Positions 4,649 through 58,587 of a DNA stretch of 64,000 nucleotides are shown piece by piece. The DNA is taken from assembly GCA_963802255.1 (NCBI GenBank), contig CAWDHY010000002.1, positions 183,480 to 247,479 on the forward strand, in the 5' to 3' direction. The stretch is from Candidatus Magasanikiibacteriota bacterium (GTDB lineage: Bacteria; Patescibacteriota; Patescibacteriia; Magasanikbacterales; GWA2-37-8). The notes below the pieces were generated by a model that saw nothing but the letters and a program-made list of their open reading frames with translations, did no database searches and was not told the origin of the DNA. Numbering within the stretch: the stretch's first letter is position 1; each line of letters begins with the position of its first letter. The position numbers were made by a program, and so were the translations under genes.

Positions 4649-4981
4649 TCATCTCTTTCTACCACGCGTCACCGGTCCAAAAATCACGTCAAATACCCGT
4701 GCCTTTCGAACTTTTCCATTTTTTGATTTAAGCCATACACTGCCTTCTAAACGGTCTATCTTTGTAACAATGTATTCAAACATTCTCAAATCATCACCGA
4801 GCTTGGCTTTATAAACCATTTTTTCTTTTAGACCGGTATTTTTAAGCCGGTCGGAAATTTTTTGCTTTTTCTCATTTGCTAAGTCCTTTAAGCCCTCGCT
4901 GACTTTGCCAAAAGCATCTGCCCGACGTTTTTGCCACGAGCTGTCTTTATTCCCCGCGCGTAGATGTTTTTTTATTGACAT
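4649..4981 (-). CDS. hypothetical basic protein (110 aa)
   Basis: Intact ORF with native AT-rich composition, immediately downstream of the phosphohexomutase gene. Confidence 0.5.
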   Translation of the reverse strand: MSIKKHLRAGNKDSSWQKRRADAFGKVSEGLKDLANEKKQKISDRLKNTGLKEKMVYKAKLGDDLRMFEYIVTKIDRLEGSVWLKSKNGKVRKARVFDVIFGPVTRGRKR

Positions 4982-6436: not shown

Positions 6437-8965
6437 ATGAATATACTTGACCGTTTTTCCACTCATCTGAAAGAAATACTGGCCAAAGCGATGCAAATAG
6501 CGGCTGAATTAAAAAATCATGAAATCGAACCTCTCCATTTATTGTTTGCTTTGATAAACGAAAAGGGTTCGGTTGCAGCGGAAATTATCAACCGGGCGAA
6601 GCCGGATATTAAAGTTCTGGAACAGATGATATTCGCCGTACCGGCAGATCCTAATGCAAAAAAAGATTTCCAAGACATTTCAACCGCATCAGTTCAAATT
6701 CCTCCCCTTTCGGCGCTCTCAAAAATCGCTTTGGAAAAGGCCCTGATCGTCGCACAAAAAAATGGTCATAATTATCTTGGTTCCGAACACTTGCTGGCCG
6801 CCTTGTTAGATTTGGACGATGATAAATTGAAAGAATTTTTTAAAGTGAGCAATCTGAAAATTGAACCTATCTCAAAGGAAATTGATTCAACATTAGCAAA
6901 CGCTTCTCAATTTCCCGGTCTGAGCGAAGTAGCGGAAGCCGCTGAACATATCCAGGAAAATTTACTGGGACCATCCATGCCTCAGCCGTCCCGAAAACCA
7001 AGAAAAAATAAAAGAAAAAATGAAAAAAATTCCGACTCGGCGCTTGATTATTTTGCCGTCAATCTGACCGACCCTGCTAACCAAAAAAATATTGACCCAT
7101 TAATCGGCAGAGGGCGTGAAGTGGAAAGACTGATACAAATTTTATCCCGACGGACAAAAAATAATCCGATACTTCTTGGAGACCCGGGGGTGGGAAAAAC
7201 CGCAATCGTAGAGGGTTTGGCAAAAAAAATTATCGAAGGCGATGTTCCGGATAAATTACGCCGGAAAAAAATTTATTCCGTAGACCTGGGCCTGCTCGTA
7301 GCCGGCACCATATACCGCGGTGAATTTGAATCCCGCCTGAAAGACCTGATTGACGAAGCGATCTCCGACTCGGAAATTATTTTATTTATAGACGAAATTC
7401 ACAATATTGTTGGCGCCGGGTCGTCACAAGGATCAATGGACGCGGCCAATCTTCTTAAACCGGCGCTTGCGCGTGGTCAAATCCACTGCATCGGATCCAC
7501 CACACCGGCGGAATACAAGAAATTTTTTGAAAGTGATGCGGCTCTGGAACGCCGCTTTATGCCGATAATAGTACGCGAGCCGAATATTTCTGAAGCGGAA
7601 AAAATCCTACAAGGCATAAAAAAGAATTTTGAATTATTCCATCAGATTAAAATTGAAGACGCCGCCGCCAACGCCGCCGTCACATTATCAGCGCGCTATA
7701 TATCAGGAAAATTTTTACCTGATAAGGCAATTGATTTAATTGACGAAACCGCGGCCGCAAAAAGACTTTCCATAAAAAATTCTCCGGATGAAGAGCTATT
7801 ATTTACTTTGCATGACGAACTGAGAAAGGTTCAGACCGACAAGGAAACCGCCGCATTTGGCGACAAATTTGATGAAGCATTAAGACTTAAAGAACAGGAA
7901 ATTCATTTAGCCGCAAAAATTGAAAAAATTGAAAAATTAGCCGGTAAAAAAAACCAGACGGCGCTCGGTGTTGTTACGGCTCAGGATGTTTTGGCTCAAA
8001 TCGTTAAAATGACAGGCATAGAACCTTCGGAGTTATCCGCCAATAATGCCGATAAATTCGTCAAACTTTCCAAAAAAATCAAACAAAAAATTGTCGGCCA
8101 AGACGAAACTGTCGACCAAGTAGTCGGCTTAATCCGGCGCGCGGAACTGGGTCTTTCTAACCCGGAAAAGCCGGTCGCTTCATTTCTCTTTGTCGGCTCT
8201 TCAGGCGTAGGAAAAACTGAATTGGCGAAAACACTTTCTCAGGCACTCTATCCCGGACAAGATGCCTTAATCCGGCTAGATATGTCCGAATTCAGCGAAT
8301 CTCACGGCTCATCTAAACTACTCGGCTCTCCGGCCGGATATATCGGCTATAAAGAAGCCAACCAATTCACCGACCGACTTAAACTTCAACCCTATTCCGT
8401 AGTGCTTTTTGATGAAATTGACAAAGCCCATCCGGATATACAAAAACTGCTTTTACAGGTACTAGAGGATGGTAGTATTACCGACTCCACAGGCAAGAAA
8501 ATATCTCTAAAACATGCTATAATAGTATTAACTACGTCTTATGGTGCCGATGAGCTAAAAAAAGGCGTATTTGGGTTTTCATTGGACAGTCAGATGGCAA
8601 AAGAAAACCGTGCAAAAATTCACGATAAAATCAAAGAACGGTTCTCTCCCGAACTGATTAATCGTCTTGACTGCGTCTGTATTTTCAGCGAACTATCCTT
8701 AAATGATTTGGCAAGAATTGCCTTCTTAGAAATCGATTCACTAAATCATCAGCTAAAAAAATATCAGACAAAGATTTCCGCGGATAAATCAATTCTGCAG
8801 GAACTGGTAAAAGGACTGGAAGAAAAAAATATTAATGCCCGCGACATCCGGCAGAAAATTCGCGCAGAAATAGAAAAAATTATGGCGGAAATAATTTTAA
8901 ATAGTAAACCGAAAAAATCTTACGCGCTAATTGCCGAATCCGGAAACAAGATTAATTTGAAATAA
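6437..8965 (+). CDS. clpC: ATP-dependent Clp protease ATP-binding subunit (ClpC/ClpB-like AAA+ chaperone)
   Basis: Clp_N repeats (MNILDRFSTHLKEIL...), two AAA+ modules with Walker A GDPGVGKT and GSSGVGKT, sensor/arginine-finger region. Confidence 0.85.
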   Translation: MNILDRFSTHLKEILAKAMQIAAELKNHEIEPLHLLFALINEKGSVAAEIINRAKPDIKVLEQMIFAVPADPNAKKDFQDISTASVQIPPLSALSKIALEKALIVAQKNGHNYLGSEHLLAALLDLDDDKLKEFFKVSNLKIEPISKEIDSTLANASQFPGLSEVAEAAEHIQENLLGPSMPQPSRKPRKNKRKNEKNSDSALDYFAVNLTDPANQKNIDPLIGRGREVERLIQILSRRTKNNPILLGDPGVGKTAIVEGLAKKIIEGDVPDKLRRKKIYSVDLGLLVAGTIYRGEFESRLKDLIDEAISDSEIILFIDEIHNIVGAGSSQGSMDAANLLKPALARGQIHCIGSTTPAEYKKFFESDAALERRFMPIIVREPNISEAEKILQGIKKNFELFHQIKIEDAAANAAVTLSARYISGKFLPDKAIDLIDETAAAKRLSIKNSPDEELLFTLHDELRKVQTDKETAAFGDKFDEALRLKEQEIHLAAKIEKIEKLAGKKNQTALGVVTAQDVLAQIVKMTGIEPSELSANNADKFVKLSKKIKQKIVGQDETVDQVVGLIRRAELGLSNPEKPVASFLFVGSSGVGKTELAKTLSQALYPGQDALIRLDMSEFSESHGSSKLLGSPAGYIGYKEANQFTDRLKLQPYSVVLFDEIDKAHPDIQKLLLQVLEDGSITDSTGKKISLKHAIIVLTTSYGADELKKGVFGFSLDSQMAKENRAKIHDKIKERFSPELINRLDCVCIFSELSLNDLARIAFLEIDSLNHQLKKYQTKISADKSILQELVKGLEEKNINARDIRQKIRAEIEKIMAEIILNSKPKKSYALIAESGNKINLK

Positions 8966-8969
8966 ATCT

Positions 8970-9806
8970 ATGGCCAATCCAGCGCCACAAGATAACGAGG
9001 AATTAGACACCGGACTGTCTTTTGATAACGAGCCCAGCGATCTTGAAAAACGTGCCACTGAACTGCAAAGACAAAGGTCATTGTCCAGAAAAACACAAAA
9101 CGATTATCTGCAAAAACAAGATGAAGGACCAAAAACTGAATTCGCCGGCATGGAGCACCCGGAAATCGGCGAGCTGTCGGAAAAACCGGCGGAAGGAGAA
9201 TCTGAAGAGGAAGAAGAAGATAGTGAAGGATATGAGGAAGGAGAAAGTGGTGAAGAAGAACAAGAAATGCCAGACGAAGAACAGGCGGAAGGTCCCGCAA
9301 ACGCGAACCAGCCAAAAATTAACCAGCTACGAACGGCAAATTTAAAAATTACCAGACAAATTCAGGATATTCAAAAAGGAATTGAGAAAGGCCTTACTCC
9401 AATAAAAAGGCAGTTATCCGCATCAAAAATTGCTGACCGGTCTAAAAACGCGATGAGGGCAATAAGATACTGCGGCGCTGGTTTCGCTCTTTGGTATACC
9501 ATAATTTTACCGCTTCTTGCTCTGTTCGGTATTCTGGCAATTGCGCTGTTGTGGTTAGCCGGTTTCAATCTTGGCCCACCCTCTCCAAAAACAAGAACTT
9601 TGGAGCAACAATTAAAAAATACCAGAAAAATGCTGAAAAAGCAGATGGACCAGAGAATCCGCCCTCTTCGTCAACAACTCACGCAAATTAATAGACAGCT
9701 TAATTCATTACAAATGAGAGGCGCGCCTTCCGGAGGACGGTCTCCGGCTTGGGGAATGAGCGAAATGAGAAGAAATTATTCACCGCCAAAACAAAAAAAT
9801 ATTTAA
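8970..9806 (+). CDS. hypothetical membrane protein with highly acidic (poly-Glu) N-terminal region
   Basis: ORF starts 4 nt after clpC; E/D-rich low-complexity stretch encoded by GAA-rich DNA, then one TM helix (WYTIILPLLALFGILAIALLWLAGF). Confidence 0.5.
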   Translation: MANPAPQDNEELDTGLSFDNEPSDLEKRATELQRQRSLSRKTQNDYLQKQDEGPKTEFAGMEHPEIGELSEKPAEGESEEEEEDSEGYEEGESGEEEQEMPDEEQAEGPANANQPKINQLRTANLKITRQIQDIQKGIEKGLTPIKRQLSASKIADRSKNAMRAIRYCGAGFALWYTIILPLLALFGILAIALLWLAGFNLGPPSPKTRTLEQQLKNTRKMLKKQMDQRIRPLRQQLTQINRQLNSLQMRGAPSGGRSPAWGMSEMRRNYSPPKQKNI

Positions 9807-9839: not shown

Positions 9840-11066
9840 ATGTCGGACAGAACAAAAAGAATCTTACTAATTGCCGCACTTTTGGCTGTAACAGCGCTAT
9901 TAGCTTTTGCCCTATATTATTTATTCAAAAAAGCCGGCCCCTTGGCCGGTGTTATTCCAACCCCAACGGCCACACCAACTACACCGGGCGGATTGCCGTC
10001 AGCCGGCGGACGCGTTACTACTACTCTTCCGAGCGGAGAAGTTACCACGACTTTACCGGTCGCTGGATATATCCCCGGCGTTCAACCAAGCTATTACCGA
10101 GCGGAAGCTGTAACAAAAATTGCCGACACTCCGACCACCTACCCGTCACTGTCGGAAAGCGGCAATTACCGCTATTACGACGCGACCGACGGAAAATTTT
10201 ACCGCATAATGCCCGACGGTTCAATTACGGCATTAAGCGAACAAGTTTTTTATAATGTTAAAAATGTGACTTGGGCAAACAACGCCGACAAAGCCGTGCT
10301 GGAATATCCCGACAGTTCAAAGATTATCTATAATTTCGAAACACAAAAACAAGTCACCCTGCCAAAACACTGGGAAGAATTTTCTTTTTCTCCGGACAGC
10401 ACGGAAGTGGCCGCAAAAGCTATCGGATTATCTCCCGAAAACAGATGGCTTGTAACCATTAACGACGATGGTTCAGGAACAAAATTAGTTGAACCAATGG
10501 GAGAAAACGGTGATAAAGTAATTGTTGACTGGTCGCCAAGCAAGCAGGCGGTAGCATTCTCCCTTACGGCGCGGGGCTTGGGATTATACCGAAAAGAAAT
10601 TTTCTTAGTCGGCTTAAACGGTGAAAATTTTAAATCTACAATTGTGGAGGGTCTGGGTTTTGAGCCAAAGTGGTCGCCGACAGGACAAAAATTGGCTTAT
10701 AGCGTTTATAGTGACCGCAGTAATTTTAAGCCGGAACTCTGGGTCGTTAATTCATATGGACAAGAAATAGGGTCCGGACGGCAAAATCTTGGTCTGGCCA
10801 CATGGGCTGAAAAATGCACCTTTAGCGGTGATACTACAATGTACTGCGCCGTACCTCGCAATTTACCGCAGGGTGCCGGTATTAAACCGGAAATAGCATC
10901 CGGTTCAACCGATGATCTCTATAAAATCGATCTGACGACTGGATTAAAAACAACAATCAACACCGACGGAAATTATTCAATCAATAATCTTTCTTTTGAC
11001 GAAACTAACAATCGCCTCCTTTTCACCGATCCTGCACAAAGCGGAGTTTTTGAAGTTAAATTATAA
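9840..11066 (+). CDS. TolB-like beta-propeller (PD40/WD40-like repeat) protein with N-terminal membrane anchor and Pro/Thr-rich linker
   Basis: N-terminal TM, PT-rich linker, repeated DWSPSxxxxAFS and PKWSPTGQKLAYS motifs typical of PD40 repeats. Confidence 0.55.
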   Translation: MSDRTKRILLIAALLAVTALLAFALYYLFKKAGPLAGVIPTPTATPTTPGGLPSAGGRVTTTLPSGEVTTTLPVAGYIPGVQPSYYRAEAVTKIADTPTTYPSLSESGNYRYYDATDGKFYRIMPDGSITALSEQVFYNVKNVTWANNADKAVLEYPDSSKIIYNFETQKQVTLPKHWEEFSFSPDSTEVAAKAIGLSPENRWLVTINDDGSGTKLVEPMGENGDKVIVDWSPSKQAVAFSLTARGLGLYRKEIFLVGLNGENFKSTIVEGLGFEPKWSPTGQKLAYSVYSDRSNFKPELWVVNSYGQEIGSGRQNLGLATWAEKCTFSGDTTMYCAVPRNLPQGAGIKPEIASGSTDDLYKIDLTTGLKTTINTDGNYSINNLSFDETNNRLLFTDPAQSGVFEVKL

Positions 11067-13324: not shown

Positions 13325-14668
13325 ATGAGCCGTAATAATACAGTATTTGTATGTTCGAATTGCGATGCCCAGTTTCAAAAATGGACGGGTAAATGTTTAG
13401 AATGCGGACAATGGGGCACGATTGATAAAAATCCTGTCAGCATCTCATCAAAAAATGAAAATAAACAAGAATTTGCGCCGGCTAAAATATCTGCACTTTC
13501 AGAAATAAAAAGTGAAAATATAGCACGAACGAAAACAAATATCGGCGAACTGGACCGCGTGCTCGGCGGCGGTCTTGTCCCCGGCTCTCTTATTCTTCTT
13601 GGTGGCGAGCCTGGTATCGGCAAATCAACACTGGCACTTCAACTCGCTGCCATTTTACCGCAGGCCCTTTATTTGTCCGGTGAAGAATCAGCCGAGCAAA
13701 TCAAACTGCGTTCCGATAGATTAAATATAAAATCGCAAAATCTCAAAATCGGCAATGAATCAAATATTGAAACGATTATCGCGACCATAAAAAAGGAACG
13801 GCCGGTTTTAACCGTCGTTGATTCCGTGCAAACCATCTACTCGAACGACTCCGAGGGCGAAGCAGGCAATCTCGCGCAGGTCCGCGCCTGTACCGTAAAA
13901 CTTATGGAACTGGCAAAAAGCGAACGGCTTACAATTGTTCTGGTCGGCCAGGTGACAAAAGAAGGCACGGTCGCCGGTCCAAAGACATTGGAACATCTGG
14001 TGGACACGGTTTTGTATCTTGAAGGCGACCGCTTTCATCAGTTCAGAATTCTGCGCGCCGCTAAAAATCGTTTCGGTTCAACCGATGAAGTCGGTGTTTT
14101 TTCTATGGAAGAAAATGGCTTGCAGGAAGTAAAAAATCCTTCGGCCGCATTTCTGGGCGAACGGGCGGAAAACGCCCCCGGTAATGTCGTGGCATGTTTA
14201 ATGGAAGGCTCGCGTCCCATCCTCTGTGAAGTGCAGGCACTGGTAAGTAAAACGTCTTTTGGCTATCCGGTGCGCAAATCAAGCGGCTTTGATTTAAACA
14301 GATTACATATGCTGGTTGCCGTACTTGAACGCCGTGCCGGATTAACACTTAGTCAATATGACATTCATTTAAATGTGGTCGGCGGACTTTCAGCCGATGA
14401 ACCGGCCGCAGATTTGGCAGCGGCACTGGCCATTGCCAGCGCATATAAAGACAAACCACTTGGTTCGGATATGGCCGCTTTTGGTGAAATTGGGTTATCA
14501 GGCGAAGTACGACCCGTTTCATTTACGGAAAAACGTCTTAAAGAATGTGAACAGCTTGGACTAAAACGGGCACTGACCAATTTGGGGAAAAAAAATGCCG
14601 GACTAAAAATGAAAGTGTTAAAAATAGTGGATATAAAAAATATCCAGGAAATCATAAAACATACATAA
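13325..14668 (+). CDS. radA: DNA repair protein RadA/Sms
   Basis: N-terminal C4 zinc finger (CSNCDAQF...CLECGQWG), Walker A GGEPGIGKST, KNRFG motif, Lon-like C-terminal domain. Confidence 0.9.
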   Translation: MSRNNTVFVCSNCDAQFQKWTGKCLECGQWGTIDKNPVSISSKNENKQEFAPAKISALSEIKSENIARTKTNIGELDRVLGGGLVPGSLILLGGEPGIGKSTLALQLAAILPQALYLSGEESAEQIKLRSDRLNIKSQNLKIGNESNIETIIATIKKERPVLTVVDSVQTIYSNDSEGEAGNLAQVRACTVKLMELAKSERLTIVLVGQVTKEGTVAGPKTLEHLVDTVLYLEGDRFHQFRILRAAKNRFGSTDEVGVFSMEENGLQEVKNPSAAFLGERAENAPGNVVACLMEGSRPILCEVQALVSKTSFGYPVRKSSGFDLNRLHMLVAVLERRAGLTLSQYDIHLNVVGGLSADEPAADLAAALAIASAYKDKPLGSDMAAFGEIGLSGEVRPVSFTEKRLKECEQLGLKRALTNLGKKNAGLKMKVLKIVDIKNIQEIIKHT

Positions 14669-14744: not shown

Positions 14745-15183
14745 TCAGTCGGCTGGAGTGGCGTGGTTTTCCGTGTCTGGCGTGAAGTCATCGACCTCGA
14801 TGCACGGATGCTTTATGACCATCAAGGCCAGGTCGTGCTTGAAAGAGTCAATGCCCGGAACGATGTGGTGGAAATCCGGCGATAAGTCGCGCTTCTTTTT
14901 GTTGCGCAACTGCAAAGCTTGGCACTCATATATCGCCTCCAGGTCGCTCAGTCTGCGAAAGACGATCCGCTCGAGTTCCACCTGCATGTCACGGCCGTTG
15001 CGTCCTGCCCTACCAAACGCCAAAACCGTTTTGCCGTTGAGCTTGAGCGGAGTGCAGCGCACCCACAGTGGTCTCATGTCTTGCCCGCCTTTGTGTTGCA
15101 CCATTGCAACCACAAAGTCATTCCCCGCAGGATCGAAAGCGTTCTCCTTTGGCGGTAAACCCGCCCATACTTGTCTGCCCATT
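14745..15183 (-). CDS. hypothetical protein (about 146 aa) in a GC-rich island; likely start MGRQVWAGL
   Basis: Strong SD (aaaggaggagagaagaATG) and promoter TTGACG N17 TATTCT at 15261-15289; the antisense plus-strand ORF is Ser-rich low complexity and was rejected. Confidence 0.5.
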
Positions 15184-15200
15184 CTTCTCTCCTCCTTTAA

Positions 15201-15212
15201 ATGAACGTTCAT
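15201..15212. promoter_or_regulatory. perfect 12-bp palindrome ATGAACGTTCAT between promoter and SD of the GC-rich gene (candidate operator)
   Basis: Self-complementary dodecamer in the 5-prime UTR. Confidence 0.3.
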
Positions 15213-28460: not shown

Positions 28461-29225
28461 TTATTCAAATCTATCTAAAAATTCCCGCGACAATCGTTCA
28501 TACGCTTTAGCCCCCTTGCCGCTTGATTCATAGTGAAATATACTCTGACCGTAACTTGGCGCCTCGGCCAGACGGACAGTCCGCGGTATTACGGTTCGAA
28601 ATATATTGTTGGGAAAAAATTTATATAGTTCATGTAGTACTTCTTCGGAAAGGCGATTGCGCGAATCAAACATGGTGAGCACAGCACCTAATACGTTTAA
28701 TTCGGGTTTGATATTGTCCCGCACTAGATCAATTGTTTTTAATAGCTGGCCCAGCCCTTCCAGGGCATAATATTCGGCTTGCACCGGAATAAGTACATGA
28801 TCGGCCGCGACAAGGCCATTCAAAGTCAACAGACCTAGCGATGGAGGGCAATCAATAATAATATAATCATAAGCATGCTTCGCTTCGCTCAATACATCTG
28901 ATAATTTTTTTTCACGACCCTCAATATTGACCAGTTCAACATTGGCACCTGCAAGATCCGGAGTGGCGGGAGCAACGCGCAAGCCTGTATGCGCCGTATT
29001 TCTGACAATATCATGAATGCGCGACGTGCCGATAATTGTATGATATAGGCCTTCAGCCACTTCGTCCGGCCTGATACCCAGCCCGGAAGTTGCATTGCCT
29101 TGCGGGTCTAAATCAACAAGCAAAACAAACTTACCGGCCTCAGACAGGCCAGCTGCAAGGTTTACGGCCGTAGTGGTCTTTCCCACCCCGCCTTTTTGAT
29201 TGACAATTGATATTACTGGAGGCAT
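28461..29225 (-). CDS. parA: chromosome partitioning ATPase ParA (Soj)
   Basis: Deviant Walker A KGGVGKTTTAVNLAAGL. Confidence 0.9.
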   Translation of the reverse strand: MPPVISIVNQKGGVGKTTTAVNLAAGLSEAGKFVLLVDLDPQGNATSGLGIRPDEVAEGLYHTIIGTSRIHDIVRNTAHTGLRVAPATPDLAGANVELVNIEGREKKLSDVLSEAKHAYDYIIIDCPPSLGLLTLNGLVAADHVLIPVQAEYYALEGLGQLLKTIDLVRDNIKPELNVLGAVLTMFDSRNRLSEEVLHELYKFFPNNIFRTVIPRTVRLAEAPSYGQSIFHYESSGKGAKAYERLSREFLDRFE

Positions 29226-35436: not shown

Positions 35437-36726
35437 TTATATATGATCGTATTCGTGCATAGTTAACTGAGCTTCAAGCTGTTTTGCCGTTTCAATAGCT
35501 ACAGATACAACGATAAGAAGCGATGTGCCGCCGATTGTTAATACTTGTGAACCGCTGACTGAACGAAGTAAGAGCGGTAATACGGCGATTAAGCCCAAAA
35601 AACTGGCGCCGATCAAATTGATACGGCTGACAATCGCCGAAAGATAACCCTCTGTTTCTTTTCCCGGTCTGATACCAGGAACAAATCCGCCGTTTTTCTG
35701 TAAATTCTCCGCAATTTTTTGCGGATGAAAAATGACCGAGGTGTAGAAAAAAGTAAAACCAAAAACCAAAAGGAAGTATGAAATACCGTAAAAAGCCTGA
35801 TTATTAAATAATCTGATTATAAACATGGCAAAATTTTTCAGCCATTCCGCGTTTGCTGATACAAAAAATTGCGCGATCATCGGCGGAATTACCACGAGTG
35901 AGATGGCGAAGATAATCGGGATAACTCCGGCCATATTAACACGGATGGGCAAATGTGTTGATCCGCCTCCAAAAATGCGCGAACCGCGCACTTGCTTGGC
36001 GTAATTGACCGGAATTTGACGCTGACCTTCGCTGATAAAAACCACGCCGACGACAGTCACAAGAGCGATTAAACCAAACATTACAAATGTATAAAAATCG
36101 GCCGCAGTATAGTTTGCAACTGCTTGCCCGATGGTAGACGGCAAGGAGGCCACGATACCGGAAAAGATTAACAATGAAATACCATTACCCACTTTTCTTT
36201 CAGAAATCAATTCACCAATCCAGACAAGAAACATGGTGCCTGCGGTAATACTGACCATTATGGTAAACATATCTAAACCGGTCAAACTTGCAGGAAGAAT
36301 ATCCCGTGATGAATTCGCCAAAAAACGAATCATAGCAAAGGACTGTAAAAACGCGAGCGGAACTGTAAGCCAGCGCGTATACATGTTTATTTTTGCCTGG
36401 CCAGACTCACCTTCTTTTTGCATTTCCTCCAGTTTCGGCACAATCATGGCTAGAAGCTGAAAAATAATTGACGAAGTAATGTATGGAGCAACGCCAAGCA
36501 TTATCAATGAAAAATTCTTTACAGTGCCCCCGGAAAAAACATCGAGCAATTGAAATACTTGCTGACCGGATAAAAATTCACGCAATGCTTGCACATTGAC
36601 GCCTGGCACAGGAATATGCGCCACTAAACGATAAATTACCAAAAGCCCGAGGACAATAAAAACATTTTTTCTTATATCCTTAATTTTCCAGACTTTTTGA
36701 ATTTTTTCCCACATATATTGTATCAA
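35437..36726 (-). CDS. secY: preprotein translocase subunit SecY
   Basis: Ten TM segments, 429 aa, position after rplO. Confidence 0.9.
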   Translation of the reverse strand: MIQYMWEKIQKVWKIKDIRKNVFIVLGLLVIYRLVAHIPVPGVNVQALREFLSGQQVFQLLDVFSGGTVKNFSLIMLGVAPYITSSIIFQLLAMIVPKLEEMQKEGESGQAKINMYTRWLTVPLAFLQSFAMIRFLANSSRDILPASLTGLDMFTIMVSITAGTMFLVWIGELISERKVGNGISLLIFSGIVASLPSTIGQAVANYTAADFYTFVMFGLIALVTVVGVVFISEGQRQIPVNYAKQVRGSRIFGGGSTHLPIRVNMAGVIPIIFAISLVVIPPMIAQFFVSANAEWLKNFAMFIIRLFNNQAFYGISYFLLVFGFTFFYTSVIFHPQKIAENLQKNGGFVPGIRPGKETEGYLSAIVSRINLIGASFLGLIAVLPLLLRSVSGSQVLTIGGTSLLIVVSVAIETAKQLEAQLTMHEYDHI

Positions 36727-40379: not shown

Positions 40380-40751
40380 TTACAACACCTCAGGCGCAAG
40401 AGAAATAATTTTCTGAAATCCCTTGGTGCGCAATTCACGCGCCACCGGTCCAAAAATGCGCGAACCGCGCGGCTCCTTGGTTTTTCTGTCTACAACCACC
40501 GCCGCATTTTCATCAAAACGGATATAAGTTCCATCTTTTCTGCGGGTTTCTTTTCTCTCGCGAACCAACACCGCATGAACAACTTCACCTTTCTTAACCA
40601 TGCCTCGCGGAGCGGCAATCTTTACAGAACAAGTGACAATATCACCAAGTCGGGCATATCTCTTTTTATAACCGCCAAGAACGCGCAAACATTGCAGGCG
40701 TTTTGCACCTGTATTGTCTGCCACACTTAGCATTGATCGATGTTGTATCAT
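40380..40751 (-). CDS. rplN: 50S ribosomal protein L14
   Basis: [17 protein letters not shown] signature. Confidence 0.9.
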
Positions 40752-54402: not shown

Positions 54403-54431
54403 AAAAACGGGCCAGAACGGCCCGTTTTTTT
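54403..54431. terminator. bidirectional intrinsic terminator aaaaacgggcc-agaa-cggcccgttttttt
   Basis: Perfect stem with flanking A- and T-tracts. Confidence 0.75.
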
Positions 54432-56637
54432 ATAAATCACCAACATCTCTTAAAAAACTTCCCGGACTTATTTTTATTTGCGAATCTTCGTCTATATATT
54501 CTACTTCGTCTGAATCATCGAGCGACAAACTCCGCCCATTGCCGAGAAGTGATTTATCGTCCAAAAGTTCACTGTCAATTTCTTCCAAAAATATACTTGG
54601 TCCTGGCAATGCGTCGCCCCAGCCCGAGGCTGGCCGGCCTTGGGCCGGGCCGTTCTCCATCGGATAAGTTAAAAATAAATTTTTCTTGGCGCGGGTGATA
54701 GCGACATAAAATAATCGCCGTTCTTCTTCAATCCCGCCCCGTTCACTTGCCGCCCTGCTATTTGGGAACGCTCCGCTCGCCAGGTTGATCATAAATACGG
54801 CCGACCATTCCAGCCCTTTCGCCTGATGCACGGTAGAAAGTACTATTTTTTTGTCTGTCGGCACTTTGTTATTTTGATTTTTTTGACCATAATCCTCCGT
54901 CAAATTCGCTTCAGCTAAAAACTCGGCTAAATCATTAAACTTCCCGGCATAAATCACCAATTGTTCAACATCGCCACGGCGGTCCCGGCTGTCAAAATAT
55001 TCAGCCTCCAGATAGTCATTATAGCCGGTCTCCAAAATCGTCCGCACCAGTTCAGCCGGGTGGCTGGTGCCGATACCAAGAAGCTCATCCCATATCCGCG
55101 TAAAATTTTGCCAGCCAACTTTTGCTTTTTCGCCCAACATATCAAGACCGATTGATTTGATTTCAGATACATTTGCCGCACCGCGAACCGCCTGATAAAT
55201 TTTTTGCGCCGCCACCGGCCCAATTCCTTCTTCTTTTAACAATATGCGCATCCACGCTGCTTCATCAGCCAGATTACTTAGCAAACGCAAATAAGCAAGC
55301 ACATCTTTCACGTGCGCCCGCTCAAAAAAGCGCACACCACCGCGATAGTCATAGGCAATGCCGGATTGCGCCAGTGCCATTTCCAATTGTTGAGAATGGT
55401 GTGAAGCACGAAACAAAACGGCGATTTCTTTAGGCGCGACACCTCCGTCTAAAATTTCAGAAATTTTTCTTACCACAAAATCCGCTTCTGCTGCCTGGTC
55501 TGCTTGCGGTCTTAACTCCGGTTTTACTCCGCTTTGAAAAATTGTTTTTAAATTTTTCTGATATTGATTTATGTTATTAGCGATGACATCGTTAGCTAGC
55601 GACAAAATCTCCTGGCTGGAACGATAATTTGTTTCCAGTTTAAAAATTTTAGCATCAGGATAATCTTTCCCAAAGCTCAAAATATTTTCAATGTCAGCGG
55701 CGCGAAAAGAATAGATGCTCTGCGCGTCGTCGCCTACCGCTAACAGGTTGCCGTGTATTGATGCCAATTTTTTAATAATGCTTGCCTGAAGGCGGTTGGT
55801 ATCCTGATATTCGTCAACTAAAATGTATTTGAATTGATTCGCGTATTTGGCCAAAATCATATTGTCATCCTGAACTTGTTTCAGGATCCTTTTTTCTGTT
55901 TTATCAGATGCTGAAATAAATTCAGCATGACCTGGACGCTGTAAAAGCAAAAGTAAATTCGCCAATAAATCATCAAAATCCATTGAATTCGACGCGCGCT
56001 TTCTTTTTTCATAATCACCGGCAATCTGTTTTATTTCTTCAGACCATCTGAACCAGCTCGGATATTTTATATCTAAAACATCTTCAATTGTTGTTTCAGC
56101 ATTACGGGCATAGCTTATTATGCCTTTTATCACGCCAGCCGAAGGAAATTTTTGTCCGCCTGTTTCCAAATTTAAATTTTTCAAGCTAAGTTTTACCAAC
56201 GCTTCGCTGTCATCGGCGTCTAAAATTGTAAAATTTTGTTGATAACCGATTACGCCGGAATATTTTCGTAAAATTTTGTAGGCAATATGATGAAAAGTTC
56301 CGGCCCAAGGCAAAACGTTCATCGTTTTGTCATTCCGACCGACCCGCCAGCTGGCGGGGAGCGGAGGAATCCCTTCGGAAACGCCGGAGGGATCCCTCGG
56401 CTTCGCTCGGGATGACAATTCGGCGACGCGTTTTATCATCTCCCCTGCCGCCTTGTTGGTAAATGTAACCAACAAAATATTTTCTGGGGATACGCCCTGC
56501 TCCAAAAGATAAGCCACGCGATAAGTGATAGTCCGCGTCTTGCCCGAGCCGGCGCCGGCCAATACTAAACAAGGGCCATCGCCTGTGAGGACGACGGCCA
56601 ATTGTTCCTGATTAAGTTCTGATGAAAAATCAGTCAT
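54430..56637 (-). CDS. UvrD/PcrA-type superfamily 1 DNA helicase carrying a 30-aa in-frame insertion from a palindromic repeat element
   Basis: Motifs AGAGSGKT, TFTNKAA, TFH, DEYQDTN, VGDDAQSIY; the GC-rich insert encodes RAKPRDPSGVSEGIPPLPASWRVGRNDKTM between motifs I and Ia. Confidence 0.85.
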   Translation of the reverse strand: MTDFSSELNQEQLAVVLTGDGPCLVLAGAGSGKTRTITYRVAYLLEQGVSPENILLVTFTNKAAGEMIKRVAELSSRAKPRDPSGVSEGIPPLPASWRVGRNDKTMNVLPWAGTFHHIAYKILRKYSGVIGYQQNFTILDADDSEALVKLSLKNLNLETGGQKFPSAGVIKGIISYARNAETTIEDVLDIKYPSWFRWSEEIKQIAGDYEKRKRASNSMDFDDLLANLLLLLQRPGHAEFISASDKTEKRILKQVQDDNMILAKYANQFKYILVDEYQDTNRLQASIIKKLASIHGNLLAVGDDAQSIYSFRAADIENILSFGKDYPDAKIFKLETNYRSSQEILSLANDVIANNINQYQKNLKTIFQSGVKPELRPQADQAAEADFVVRKISEILDGGVAPKEIAVLFRASHHSQQLEMALAQSGIAYDYRGGVRFFERAHVKDVLAYLRLLSNLADEAAWMRILLKEEGIGPVAAQKIYQAVRGAANVSEIKSIGLDMLGEKAKVGWQNFTRIWDELLGIGTSHPAELVRTILETGYNDYLEAEYFDSRDRRGDVEQLVIYAGKFNDLAEFLAEANLTEDYGQKNQNNKVPTDKKIVLSTVHQAKGLEWSAVFMINLASGAFPNSRAASERGGIEEERRLFYVAITRAKKNLFLTYPMENGPAQGRPASGWGDALPGPSIFLEEIDSELLDDKSLLGNGRSLSLDDSDEVEYIDEDSQIKISPGSFLRDVGDL
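56329..56418. repeat. GC-rich palindromic repeat element of about 90 bp (copy U) inserted in frame in uvrD/pcrA; RPE-like
   Basis: Terminal inverted repeats TTGTCATTC ... GGATGACAA; internal palindromes cccgccagctggcggg and gagggatccctc; about 75% identical to the copy in tgt. Confidence 0.6.
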
Positions 56638-57366: not shown

Positions 57367-58587
57367 ATGCCAGCATTTTTTGAACTAATTCACGAAGACA
57401 AAAAAACCGGCGCGCGCGCCGGAATTATACATACCGACCACGGGGACATACCAACCCCTTGTTTTATGCCGGTCGGAACTCAGGCGACTGTTAAAACTCT
57501 GGACCAAACCGATTTAGAAAAACTGGACGCGCCAATCATCCTCGGAAATACTTACCATCTTCATCTGCGCCCGGGTGAGGACCTCATCCATGAGCTCGGC
57601 GGACTGCATGAATTTATGAATTGGAAACATCCAATTCTAACTGACTCCGGAGGCTTCCAGGTTTTTAGCCTGGGATTGCAAAAAGAAGGAAAAGGACAAG
57701 GAGGACTAGTGGAAATTGATGAAGATGGCGTGGCTTTCAAATCGCATATCGACGGCTCCACGCATCGTTTCACTCCGGAATCAGCCATCCAAATTCAACA
57801 CAAACTCGGCGCGGATATAATTATGGCCTTTGATGAATGCACGCCTGACAGCGCGCCATACGAATATACAAAAGAAGCAATGGAGCGGACACATCGCTGG
57901 GCCGAGAGATGCTTGGCCGAACATGAAAAGCTCGGCCGTGTCATTCTGAATGGAGCGAAGCGAAGTGAAGAATCCCTTGCGGCTCGCAATAAGGGATCCT
58001 TCGCTAACGCTCAGGATGACAAACCGCATAACCAATTTCTTTTTGGCATCATTCAAGGCGCCAAACACAAAGATCTGCGCGAAGAGTCGGCCCGATATAT
58101 TTCTTCGCTTGATTTTGACGGCATCGCTATCGGCGGAGAATCAATCGGATATAATATGGAGGCGACCGCAGAAATAATGAACTGGTTAAAACCGATTTTG
58201 CCGAAAGACAAACCGCGCTACACAATGGGCGTCGGACTTTCCCCAAGTGATTTGCTGAAAGTAGTGTCAAATGGCGCGGATATGTTTGACTGTGTGGCGC
58301 CGACCCGCCTAGCCCGCCACGGTATGCTGTTTATCAAAAATGATGAAGAAAGAATAAATATTAATAACGCGCAATTTGCCAAAGATTCATCACCGATTGA
58401 TAAAAATTGCGATTGTCCGGTATGCGCAAAATATTCTCGCGCCTATATTCACCATCTATTCAATGCCGGGGAAATGACCGGCCAGCGTCTGGCAACAATT
58501 CACAACATTCACTTTATGCTGAATCTGATGCGTGAAGCGCGACGGGCTATTTTGGAAGACAAATTTGAAAAAATGATAAAATTATAA
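57367..58587 (+). CDS. tgt: queuine tRNA-ribosyltransferase (tRNA-guanine transglycosylase) with an about 28-aa in-frame insertion from the palindromic repeat element
   Basis: TIM-barrel motifs (DSGGFQ, zinc site CDCPVC...H); the GC-rich insert encodes GRVILNGAKRSEESLAARNKGSFANAQDDKPHN before the conserved QFLFGIIQG. Confidence 0.85.
   Translation: MPAFFELIHEDKKTGARAGIIHTDHGDIPTPCFMPVGTQATVKTLDQTDLEKLDAPIILGNTYHLHLRPGEDLIHELGGLHEFMNWKHPILTDSGGFQVFSLGLQKEGKGQGGLVEIDEDGVAFKSHIDGSTHRFTPESAIQIQHKLGADIIMAFDECTPDSAPYEYTKEAMERTHRWAERCLAEHEKLGRVILNGAKRSEESLAARNKGSFANAQDDKPHNQFLFGIIQGAKHKDLREESARYISSLDFDGIAIGGESIGYNMEATAEIMNWLKPILPKDKPRYTMGVGLSPSDLLKVVSNGADMFDCVAPTRLARHGMLFIKNDEERININNAQFAKDSSPIDKNCDCPVCAKYSRAYIHHLFNAGEMTGQRLATIHNIHFMLNLMREARRAILEDKFEKMIKL
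57940..58022. repeat. GC-rich palindromic repeat element of about 83 bp (copy T) inserted in frame in tgt; same family as the copy in uvrD
   Basis: Shares gtcattc..gaatccctt..agggatcc..cgctc.ggatgacaa blocks with copy U; internal stem gaatccctt / aagggatcc. Confidence 0.6.

Follow-up and report, generated by a model that had tools for sequence, protein, structure and literature searches.

The DNA analyzed here is a stretch of 64,000 nucleotides (nt) from a Candidatus Magasanikiibacteriota bacterium (the window; contig CAWDHY010000002.1, positions 183,480 to 247,479), in which a gene for queuine tRNA-ribosyltransferase (tgt) and a gene for a UvrD/PcrA-type helicase (uvrD) carry short palindromic elements within their reading frames. 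One of these elements lies in tgt (E1) and two lie in uvrD (E2 and E3), and their limits and parts are collected in Table 1. The element in tgt is most probably a non-autonomous palindromic repeat, an inverted dimer of repetitive extragenic palindromes (REPs) of the CGTC/TGTC-tagged superfamily, which its host gene tolerates in frame.

Table 1. Host genes and palindromic elements in the window (positions of the 64,000-nt stretch)
Feature	Position	Strand	Description
tgt (queuine tRNA-ribosyltransferase)	57367-58587	+	406 aa; open reading frame (ORF), PDB TGT match E = 6e-102; Pfam PF01702 in homologues
E1, inverted REP dimer in tgt	57939-58021		core 57940-58020, 81 nt; flanks are the tag base T57939 and its mirror A58021; tgt residues 192-218
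E1 left arm	57939-57976	+	TGTC tag; stem ATTCT (57943-57947)/AGAAT (57969-57973); enlarged loop with GCGAAGC; CCC tail; profile E = 1.8e-3
E1 spacer	57974-57995		inner stem CCCTT/AAGGG enclosing loop GCGGCTCGCAAT
E1 right arm	57993-58021	-	TGTC-ATCCT-GA-GCGTTAGC-GA-AGGAT-CCC; near family consensus; profile E = 9.8e-7; predicted fold agrees
uvrD/pcrA-type helicase	54430-56637	-	735 aa; ORF, PcrA match E = 1e-101, alignment breaks at 76->111 and 234->261
E2, REP dimer in uvrD	56328-56417		core 56329-56416 (88 nt); net insert 90 nt, residues 75-104 (SSRAKPRDPSGVSEGIPPLPASWRVGRNDK); hairpin z = -6.0
E3, REP dimer in uvrD	55862-55931		core 55864-55931 (68 nt); net insert 72 nt, about residues 237-260; AT-richer

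An earlier note on this DNA had described an insert of about 83 bp and 28 residues in tgt. The insert is present and in frame, with a core that measures 81 nt (GTCATTCTGAATGGAGCGAAGCGAAGTGAAGAATCCCTTGCGGCTCGCAATAAGGGATCCTTCGCTAACGCTCAGGATGAC) and codes for 27 residues (VILNGAKRSEESLAARNKGSFANAQDD), in such a way that in the alignment with the solved Z. mobilis TGT chain residues 182 to 211 of the query face residues 182 to 185 of the chain. Its description as GC-rich holds mildly, the values being 51.9% in E1 and 46.4% in the rest of tgt (68% in E2 and 35% in E3). The internal stem that had been noted was also found, with GAATCCCTT (57970-57978) pairing with AAGGGATCC (57991-57999). When folded with DNA parameters, the whole of E1 forms one long hairpin of -22.9 kcal/mol (z = -5.7), and none of 200 shuffled sequences folded as well.

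The proposed relationship with the uvrD copy was supported by nhmmer, in which E1 matched its own reverse complement (E = 0.002) and positions 56364-56422 of uvrD (E = 0.005). The best alignment between E1 and E2 has both in the same orientation on the + strand, and the two host genes therefore read them in opposite orientations. The three elements share the ends GTCATyCyGA…TCrGrATGAC, preceded by T and followed by A, and paired GTCAT…ATGAC ends delimit exactly three elements in the 64 kb, which are the cores of E1, E2 and E3. The end motif GTCATYCYGA occurs five times in the window against 0.38 expected, a count that none of 100 shuffles reached, and all five occurrences are element ends. Thus, where two copies within 2 kb had been counted before, there are three within 2.2 kb, the third being E3, and the probability of such a clustering under uniform placement is around 0.004.

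The six arms of these elements carry the tag TGTC in five cases and GGTC in one. The E2 arms contain compensated C-G pairs (ATTCC..GGAAT and ATCCC..GGGAT), with a CCCGCCAGCTGGCGGG hairpin that substitutes for one loop. The E3 arms are canonical CGTC-type, with 8-bp stems, 5-nt loops and a 3-nt tail (ATGCTGAA-TTTAT-TTCAGCAT and ATCCTGAA-CTTGT-TTCAGGAT). A profile built from arms of other phyla (see below) detected both arms of E1 and, less strongly, an E2 arm (E = 0.045), and nothing else credible in the window. The window's other recombination and repair genes (radA, recG, dprA, topA, recO and ruvX, at 13325-33760) have no copy, so that the bias in the source genome is specific to uvrD and tgt and does not extend to repair genes generally.

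Two further searches did not add to these elements. A generic repeat finder run on the whole window left the copies unpaired owing to their indel differences, and the families that it reported were low-complexity or chance ones. A match by nhmmer and blastn at 28877-28895 was a short chance similarity inside a ParA-type gene, without palindrome. Apart from E2 and E3, uvrD contains at 54640-54680 an extra GC-rich segment of 24 nt (GPAQGRPA) with two small hairpins and without GTCAT ends, absent from two syntenic relatives (L001 and L002, introduced below).

Presence and absence among syntenic relatives

Six syntenic loci (L001, L002 and L123 to L126) were compared with the window, all of them with tgt and five with uvrD. 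The nearest Tgt homologues belong to Magasanikbacteria-like Patescibacteria and have 377-463 aa, with a mode around 385. The tgt site, after residue ~188, is filled in the window, in L123 and in L001, and by a divergent copy in L124, and it is empty in L002, where it is exactly 81 nt shorter; the E1 insert is also missing from Tgt orthologues that are 76-78% identical. The first uvrD site (net 90 nt) is filled in the window and in L124, holds a different and well-preserved copy in L126, and is empty in L001 and L002. The second (net 72 nt) is filled in the window only and empty in all five other uvrD loci (L001, L002, L124, L125 and L126). At further sites of uvrD and tgt, private copies were found in L001, L125 and L126, the tgt copy of L125 showing the same long-loop arm variant as the left arm of E1, a variant that recurs in other phyla. 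Different subfamilies were inserted independently at the same loop.

Judged from these alignments, the comparison shows that E1 entered tgt in a genome ancestral to those of the window, L123 and L001, and that related elements entered tgt and uvrD loops independently, several times, in other Patescibacteria. The alignment of Tgt homologues that had been proposed as a check did not yield a conserved lineage-specific sequence unrelated to the uvrD insert, and the earlier suggestion of a mobile family tolerated in frame agrees with the filled and empty orthologues, the independent insertions at one loop, the profile matches to other phyla and the near-identity of genic and intergenic copies in L126. 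This last locus contains seven dimers in 20 kb (4765-4844, 6637-6713, 7900-7979, 9208-9279, 9890-9981, 13983-14083 and 15135-15210), of which uvrD and tgt hold two each, the other three lying immediately 3' of genes. Its uvrD copy at 6637 and its intergenic copy at 15135 have an identical spacer (CTCTGTCCGTTCGGCGATTGAGACAGAG) with the C/G-type and T/A-type arms swapped, and arms identical to those of E3 are found in the intergenic copy at 4765-4844. On sequence comparison, such near-identical genic and intergenic copies imply a recent spread, and the swap suggests exchange between arms.

The repeat family in other phyla and its published relatives

A pattern scan of species-representative genomes, in which the pattern required both arms and hence reports dimers only, gave at least 120 loci with at least 124 intact copies. 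The matches listed come from Chloroflexota, Acidobacteriota, Planctomycetota, Bacteroidota (among them cultured Hymenobacter and Mucilaginibacter), Verrucomicrobiota, Proteobacteria, Firmicutes, Nitrospirota, Saccharimonadales and others. Among the intact copies, the outer arms of about 25 nt are nearly invariant (GTCATyCT-GA-GCGNAGC-GA-AGrAyCT, preceded by T), GTC follows a T in 84% and a C in 14%, and the spacer between the arms is lineage-specific and self-pairing. The arm tails are CCC, CTC, CTG or CCT. The arm loop is GCG-N-AGC, with all four bases found at N, and in the cross-phylum consensus as well as in the E1 and E2 arms it is held by five Watson-Crick pairs, a tandem G·A and two pairs round a 3-nt GNA loop, or is replaced by enlarged loops. 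The predicted folds of single arms agree with this hairpin structure, and GCGNAGC is the pattern of a very stable mini-hairpin (PMC13037366). None of the families in Rfam matched the window region or ten of the loci with intact copies.

The positions y6 and r22 of the arm are complementary in 224 of 229 arms among the matches listed (Fisher p = 3e-52). Among the same matches, 29 dimers are heterodimers at y6, and in 28 of them the pairing within each arm is kept, the long hairpin being broken at that point. Solo arms and direct tandem arrays of arms also exist. Since the pairing within the arm holds in these mixed dimers and arms occur alone or in tandem, the sequences indicate that the conserved structural unit is the single arm and not the whole palindrome. 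In L112 (1700-1780) and L098 (3530-3660 and 500-800), single arms or tail fragments (…GCGCTCAGGATGACATAGGGTGT… three times) are repeated directly in tandem, in a way that resembles bacterial interspersed mosaic elements. A mixed arrangement was observed in the syntenic relative L002 (5360-5414, upstream of rpsL), where a REP of the canonical CGTC type (TGTCATTCCCGACCTGATCGGGAATCCA) and an intact arm of the GNA-loop type (TGTCATTCTGAGCGTAGCGAAGAATCCC) are arranged head-to-tail; the former reads TGTC-ATTCCCGA-CCTGA-TCGGGAAT-CCA.

In other phyla, the intact copies are mostly intergenic, in such a way that at least 60 aa are open on both sides in 4% of them versus 60% of random positions in the same loci. 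A copy that is read through was found in plasmid p1 of a cultured cyanobacterium, Planktothrix agardhii PCC 7805 (L138, 2470-2610), where the RefSeq coding sequence of PglX, a BREX methyltransferase, continues in frame across it ("…VILSETKDLSGVVKDNRDSSQAQNDRNNAQNDK…"). After this PglX copy come additional tail units coding for repeats of AQNDK/PQNDK, and two other Planktothrix plasmids have matches inside a gene for an MmeI-type enzyme and inside a hypothetical gene. Phages and plasmids as the main carriers of the family were considered and left aside, intact or similar copies having been found on 11 viral contigs and 3 plasmids only.

The closest published relatives are the REPs of the CGTC superfamily, described by Di Nocera, De Gregorio and Rocco (2013, BMC Genomics 14:522; PMC3733652), in which the tag is often TGTC or CCTC, the stems have 8-9 bp and start with A-T and then T-A, the loops have 4-5 nt, and a 3-nt tail has the consensus CCA. 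They are mostly inverted dimers, often heterodimers, with spacers of 20-100 bp that have complementary ends; they lie mostly between genes, near gene 3' ends, without an associated transposase, and were reported from 5 phyla, Patescibacteria not being covered. Intragenic dimers encode 20-30 aa, notably in genes for UvrD/Rep helicases, other repair proteins, tRNA modification and aminoacyl-tRNA synthetases, and the Rickettsia palindromic elements (RPEs) RPE-4 and RPE-6 are CGTC-4 and CGTC-1 REPs (PMC3733652).

The elements described here share with that superfamily the tag, the stems with an AT start, the inverted dimers and heterodimers, the self-pairing spacers, the lack of a transposase and the classes of host genes, and the E3 arms, with their 8-bp stem and 5-nt loop, fit the published description as written. 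They differ from it in their main arm type, which is GCGNAGC with a tandem G·A or enlarged loops (nine stem positions and the AT start being kept); in the tail, which is CCC or CTC (also CTG and CCT) and not CCA, whereas the neighbouring canonical REP of L002 does end in CCA; and in the occurrence of this subfamily in many more phyla than the 5 published. The peptides VILSEAK…, HPERSEG…, …AQDDK and …LRMT are absent from the supplement of PMC3733652, searches of the literature with the arm DNA and its peptides found no paper on bacterial repeats, and a 2025 survey of REPs (RepRanger) makes no mention of a GNA-loop family or of Patescibacteria.

The RPEs (Ogata et al. 2000, Science 290:347; PMC10969869), which a 2024 review of transposable elements of the miniature inverted-repeat kind (MITEs) treats as the extreme case of in-frame insertion (PMC10969869), are similar as in-frame palindromes in many unrelated genes of a host-dependent bacterium with a reduced genome, coding for peptides compatible with the protein fold. 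RPE-1 differs in being around 150 bp long and specific to Rickettsia, the host here belonging to Patescibacteria. The likeness is one of description, and the link is the statement on RPE-4 and RPE-6 in PMC3733652 rather than an alignment of sequences. REPINs and their RAYT transposases (Bertels and Rainey 2011; PMC2817692; PMC6006769) resemble the present case in having an inverted doublet of REPs, folded as one long hairpin, and a tetranucleotide 5' of the hairpin foot. The REPIN tag is GTAG or GTGG, however, and not TGTC or CGTC, and REPINs go with a cognate RAYT flanked by REPs, of which there is none in the 64-kb window and none known for the CGTC superfamily. Intragenic MITEs such as ERIC/RU (Delihas 2007, PMC2759123) and the Coxiella QMITE (PMC5896051) are also small and non-autonomous, with open frames and occasional in-frame fusion, but they are longer and bounded by terminal inverted repeats (TIRs), whereas the unit here is a hairpin of about 28 nt without target-site duplication.

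Host genes, reading frame and the Tgt loop

The preference for uvrD and tgt was quantified with 120 homologues per protein, which are representatives of 90%-identity clusters and not phylogenetically independent, and inserts of at least 12 aa were counted. Among the Patescibacteria homologues, such inserts were found in 29/120 Tgt proteins (24%), at three main sites (Fisher p = 5e-10 versus TrpS), and in 41/120 UvrD proteins (34%), with 71 inserts in all (p = 1e-14), the two sites used in the window being recurrent hot spots with 22 and 9 proteins. In the TrpS control, internal inserts of this length were found in 0/120. Recurrent inserts without the GTCAT signature were also observed in Tgt after residues ~323-326 (P0007, P0017, P0019 and P0067) and in UvrD after residue ~583 (P0245, P0246, P0249 and P0251), their peptides being SPLTPPFKKEGDALPPL… and YKGEGGESGRPLLTKERSEVR; they possibly represent a second, unrelated repeat family that uses the same loops.

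Within the seven Patescibacteria loci, uvrD and tgt are the only genes that hold copies, with at least 11 independent events at around seven sites by our count, and each of the four intergenic copies lies just 3' of a gene. No copy was found in these loci in fusA, rpsG, rpsL, trpS, the gene for a SPOUT methyltransferase or the hypothetical genes. Extra inserts had been suspected in fusA (718 vs 691 aa) and in rpsL of L001 (171 vs 142 aa), and they turned out to be start-codon artefacts of calling the longest ORF. The earlier note had called the host genes essential, which is too strong, tgt and uvrD being dispensable in E. coli and other model bacteria, and tolerance is the simplest explanation of the bias.

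All genic copies keep the frame of their host, with a net length that is a multiple of 3 and without stops. This is far from what the family would give by itself: frame 1 of either strand always holds a TGA, frames 0 and 2 are each open in around 44% of the copies, and only 59 of 744 combinations of copy, orientation and frame (around 8%) would keep an ORF open. Because so few combinations do so, the genic copies are taken as survivors of a selective filter, and the fact that all of them are compatible with the ORF argues against their removal at the RNA or protein level. E1 is very probably transcribed and translated with tgt, adding a disordered loop of 27 residues to the enzyme.

The structure prediction that had been suggested as a check placed the insert in a loop of low confidence. 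In the AlphaFold model of Tgt (mean predicted local distance difference test, pLDDT, of 82.5; predicted template modeling score of 0.84), the insert has a pLDDT of 43-49 and connects the helix 165-190 with the strand 224-229, the core being mostly at 85-97 in blocks of 10 residues, with a few other loops of low confidence. According to this model, the insert occupies an α→β connection, which by the topology of a TIM barrel would be on the face opposite to the catalytic βα loops. Between the window and L001, the proportion of nonsynonymous differences (pN) is 0.19 in the E1 insert versus 0.11 in the rest of tgt, which fits a relaxed constraint at the protein level.

Origin and persistence of the elements

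Taken as an inverted REP dimer, the tgt element would consist of two inverted REP-type hairpins and a short self-pairing spacer, in a REPIN-like architecture in which an unpaired (T/C)GTC tag, a stem starting with A-T and then T-A, a GCGNAGC-based loop and a 3-nt tail make up each arm. Copies would be inserted and then filtered, in such a way that only tolerant loops of dispensable or robust genes such as uvrD and tgt retain them, and a surviving insert would be read through with its host gene as tolerated selfish or neutral DNA, with no demonstrated benefit. Symbionts with reduced genomes may be permissive in this respect, being under weak selection, as was argued for Rickettsia. With regard to movement, the tetranucleotide 5' of the hairpin foot suggests recognition in trans by an enzyme of the HUH/Y1 type, which may act on the folded single-stranded DNA by analogy with GTAG-REPs and their RAYTs and with IS200/IS605. 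The layout of tag and hairpin resembles the guide-plus-hairpin substrates of Y1/HUH enzymes (PMC6006769). A candidate enzyme was sought in several ways: no transposase was found in L098, a locus with arm clusters, or by Pfam among the 40 larger ORFs of the window; clustering of ORFs of at least 110 aa in the at least 120 loci gave generic families only and no recurrent transposase-like one; and an approximate, weak RayT-like probe together with a HUH…Y motif scan over about 1 Mb of other loci gave nothing credible.

Several points weigh against this explanation. One concerns the conservation of E1. The tgt genes of the window and of L123 are 77.4% identical in nucleotides, with a proportion of synonymous differences (pS) of 0.68, and in E1 the identity rises to 95.1% (pS 0.11). 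This would not be expected of a purely neutral passenger. No other 81-nt stretch of tgt is as conserved in this comparison: E1 has 4 differences, and stretches elsewhere in the gene have at least 8, with a median of 20 (binomial p = 1.4e-5). The four are all in loop or spacer, three in the spacer (57974-57995) and one in the loop of the left arm, and the tract of high identity spans approximately 57916-58020 (1933-2037 in L123), that is, E1 and around 25 nt to its left. The E2 core shows the same pattern more weakly against L124, with 3 differences in 55 nt versus a median of 11, in a sub-window picked post hoc. A constraint at the DNA level on the arms, gene conversion or short-patch recombination are possible reasons. 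A scan of metagenomes for the E1-specific spacer at other loci gave zero matches. In L001, however, the orthologous copy has diverged to the same degree as its gene, with indels and a decaying hairpin. In addition, the E1 and E2 arms depart from the published description of the superfamily (a 3-nt GNA or enlarged loop, and a tandem G·A substituting for two Watson-Crick pairs), targeting instead of tolerance could underlie the bias to uvrD and tgt, which was measured on related homologues, the translation of the insert is deduced from the DNA, and the word mobile draws on comparative evidence only, the searches above having found no mobilising enzyme.

These observations leave some room for other explanations. 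One is that the elements belong to a branch, without an element-encoded transposase, of a REP superfamily spread over many phyla, and that in Patescibacteria genes its copies are actively made uniform or brought in again, through short-patch recombination, gene conversion or a process akin to homing, and are directed to particular loops of uvrD and tgt. It would account at once for the contrast between 95% and 77% identity, for the repeated independent insertions at the same codons and for the near-invariant arms across phyla, and we regard it as rather unlikely, with some weight nonetheless. A little less likely still is that E1 was domesticated or is actively maintained for a function, as a protein-binding hairpin, an mRNA structure, a recombination or homing site, or a useful peptide loop. 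The conservation of E1 against L123, and more weakly that of the E2 core against L124, would be expected then, and so would the arms that hardly vary across phyla and the repeated hits on the same uvrD and tgt loops. But the L001 copy has diverged as far as its gene and its hairpin is decaying, close orthologues lack the insert and still function, a single site holds inserts from different subfamilies whose peptides are unrelated, disorder is predicted for the insert, and short-patch recombination or gene conversion could also yield the high identity.

That E1 is a MITE in the classical sense, derived by deletion from an insertion sequence (IS) and moved as double-stranded DNA by a DDE transposase through its TIRs and making target-site duplications, is very improbable. 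The inverted termini, the small size, the multiple copies and the presence/absence polymorphism would all suit such an element. Nevertheless, target-site duplications are not seen, either between filled and empty sites or in the flanks of the at least 124 intact copies; position -2 is not A, so that a TA duplication is excluded, and the T and A at -1 and +1 belong to the palindromic tag; conservation applies to the single arm, found also by itself and in direct tandem arrays; and no related IS or transposase was found near the at least 120 loci or in the window. An ordinary lineage-specific loop of Tgt, palindromic by chance and unrelated to the uvrD segments, would be common to the window, L123 and L001 at a site where loop length varies, and it is hardly credible given its absence from orthologues 76-78% identical, the arm profile match (E = 1e-6), an end motif present only at the three elements and the hairpin z of -5.7. 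Equally far-fetched is a removal of the insert before the protein is made (by an intron-like or RNase-processed RNA, translational bypass or an intein), an RNA-level excision having been raised in the earlier note and the single-stranded hairpin being strong with DNA parameters, since removal would free both length and frame and the genic copies are all multiples of 3 and stop-free where around 8% would be expected; Rfam gave no match, and an intein or a group I or II intron would need far more than 81 nt (27 aa).

Intragenic REP dimers and Rickettsia RPEs are already known, including copies inside uvrD and tRNA-modification genes. What is new is the host lineage, the cross-phylum subfamily with GNA loops, the preference for uvrD and tgt now put in numbers, and the unusual conservation of E1. 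With the inverted REP dimer as the preferred explanation, the concept of selfish DNA inside proteins, derived from the RPEs, would extend to Patescibacteria (the candidate phyla radiation, CPR), another host-dependent lineage with reduced genomes, in which a quarter to a third of the Tgt and UvrD homologues have loop inserts of this kind. With regard to annotation, CPR proteins that vary in length for no evident reason or have low-complexity loops can owe these features to repeats, and the ubiquitous "hypothetical" peptides VILSEAKDL…, HPERSEGS… and …AQDDK would be open frames of one repeat family. The GCGNAGC-based arms, conserved across many phyla, also provide a well-defined bait for finding the mobilising enzyme.

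Elsewhere in the window, a direct repeat of 32 nt with 88% identity (TCCAAAAATGCGCGAACCGCGC…) was observed at 35968-35999 and 40449-40480, one copy being in the secY ORF and the other in a region of ribosomal-protein genes.

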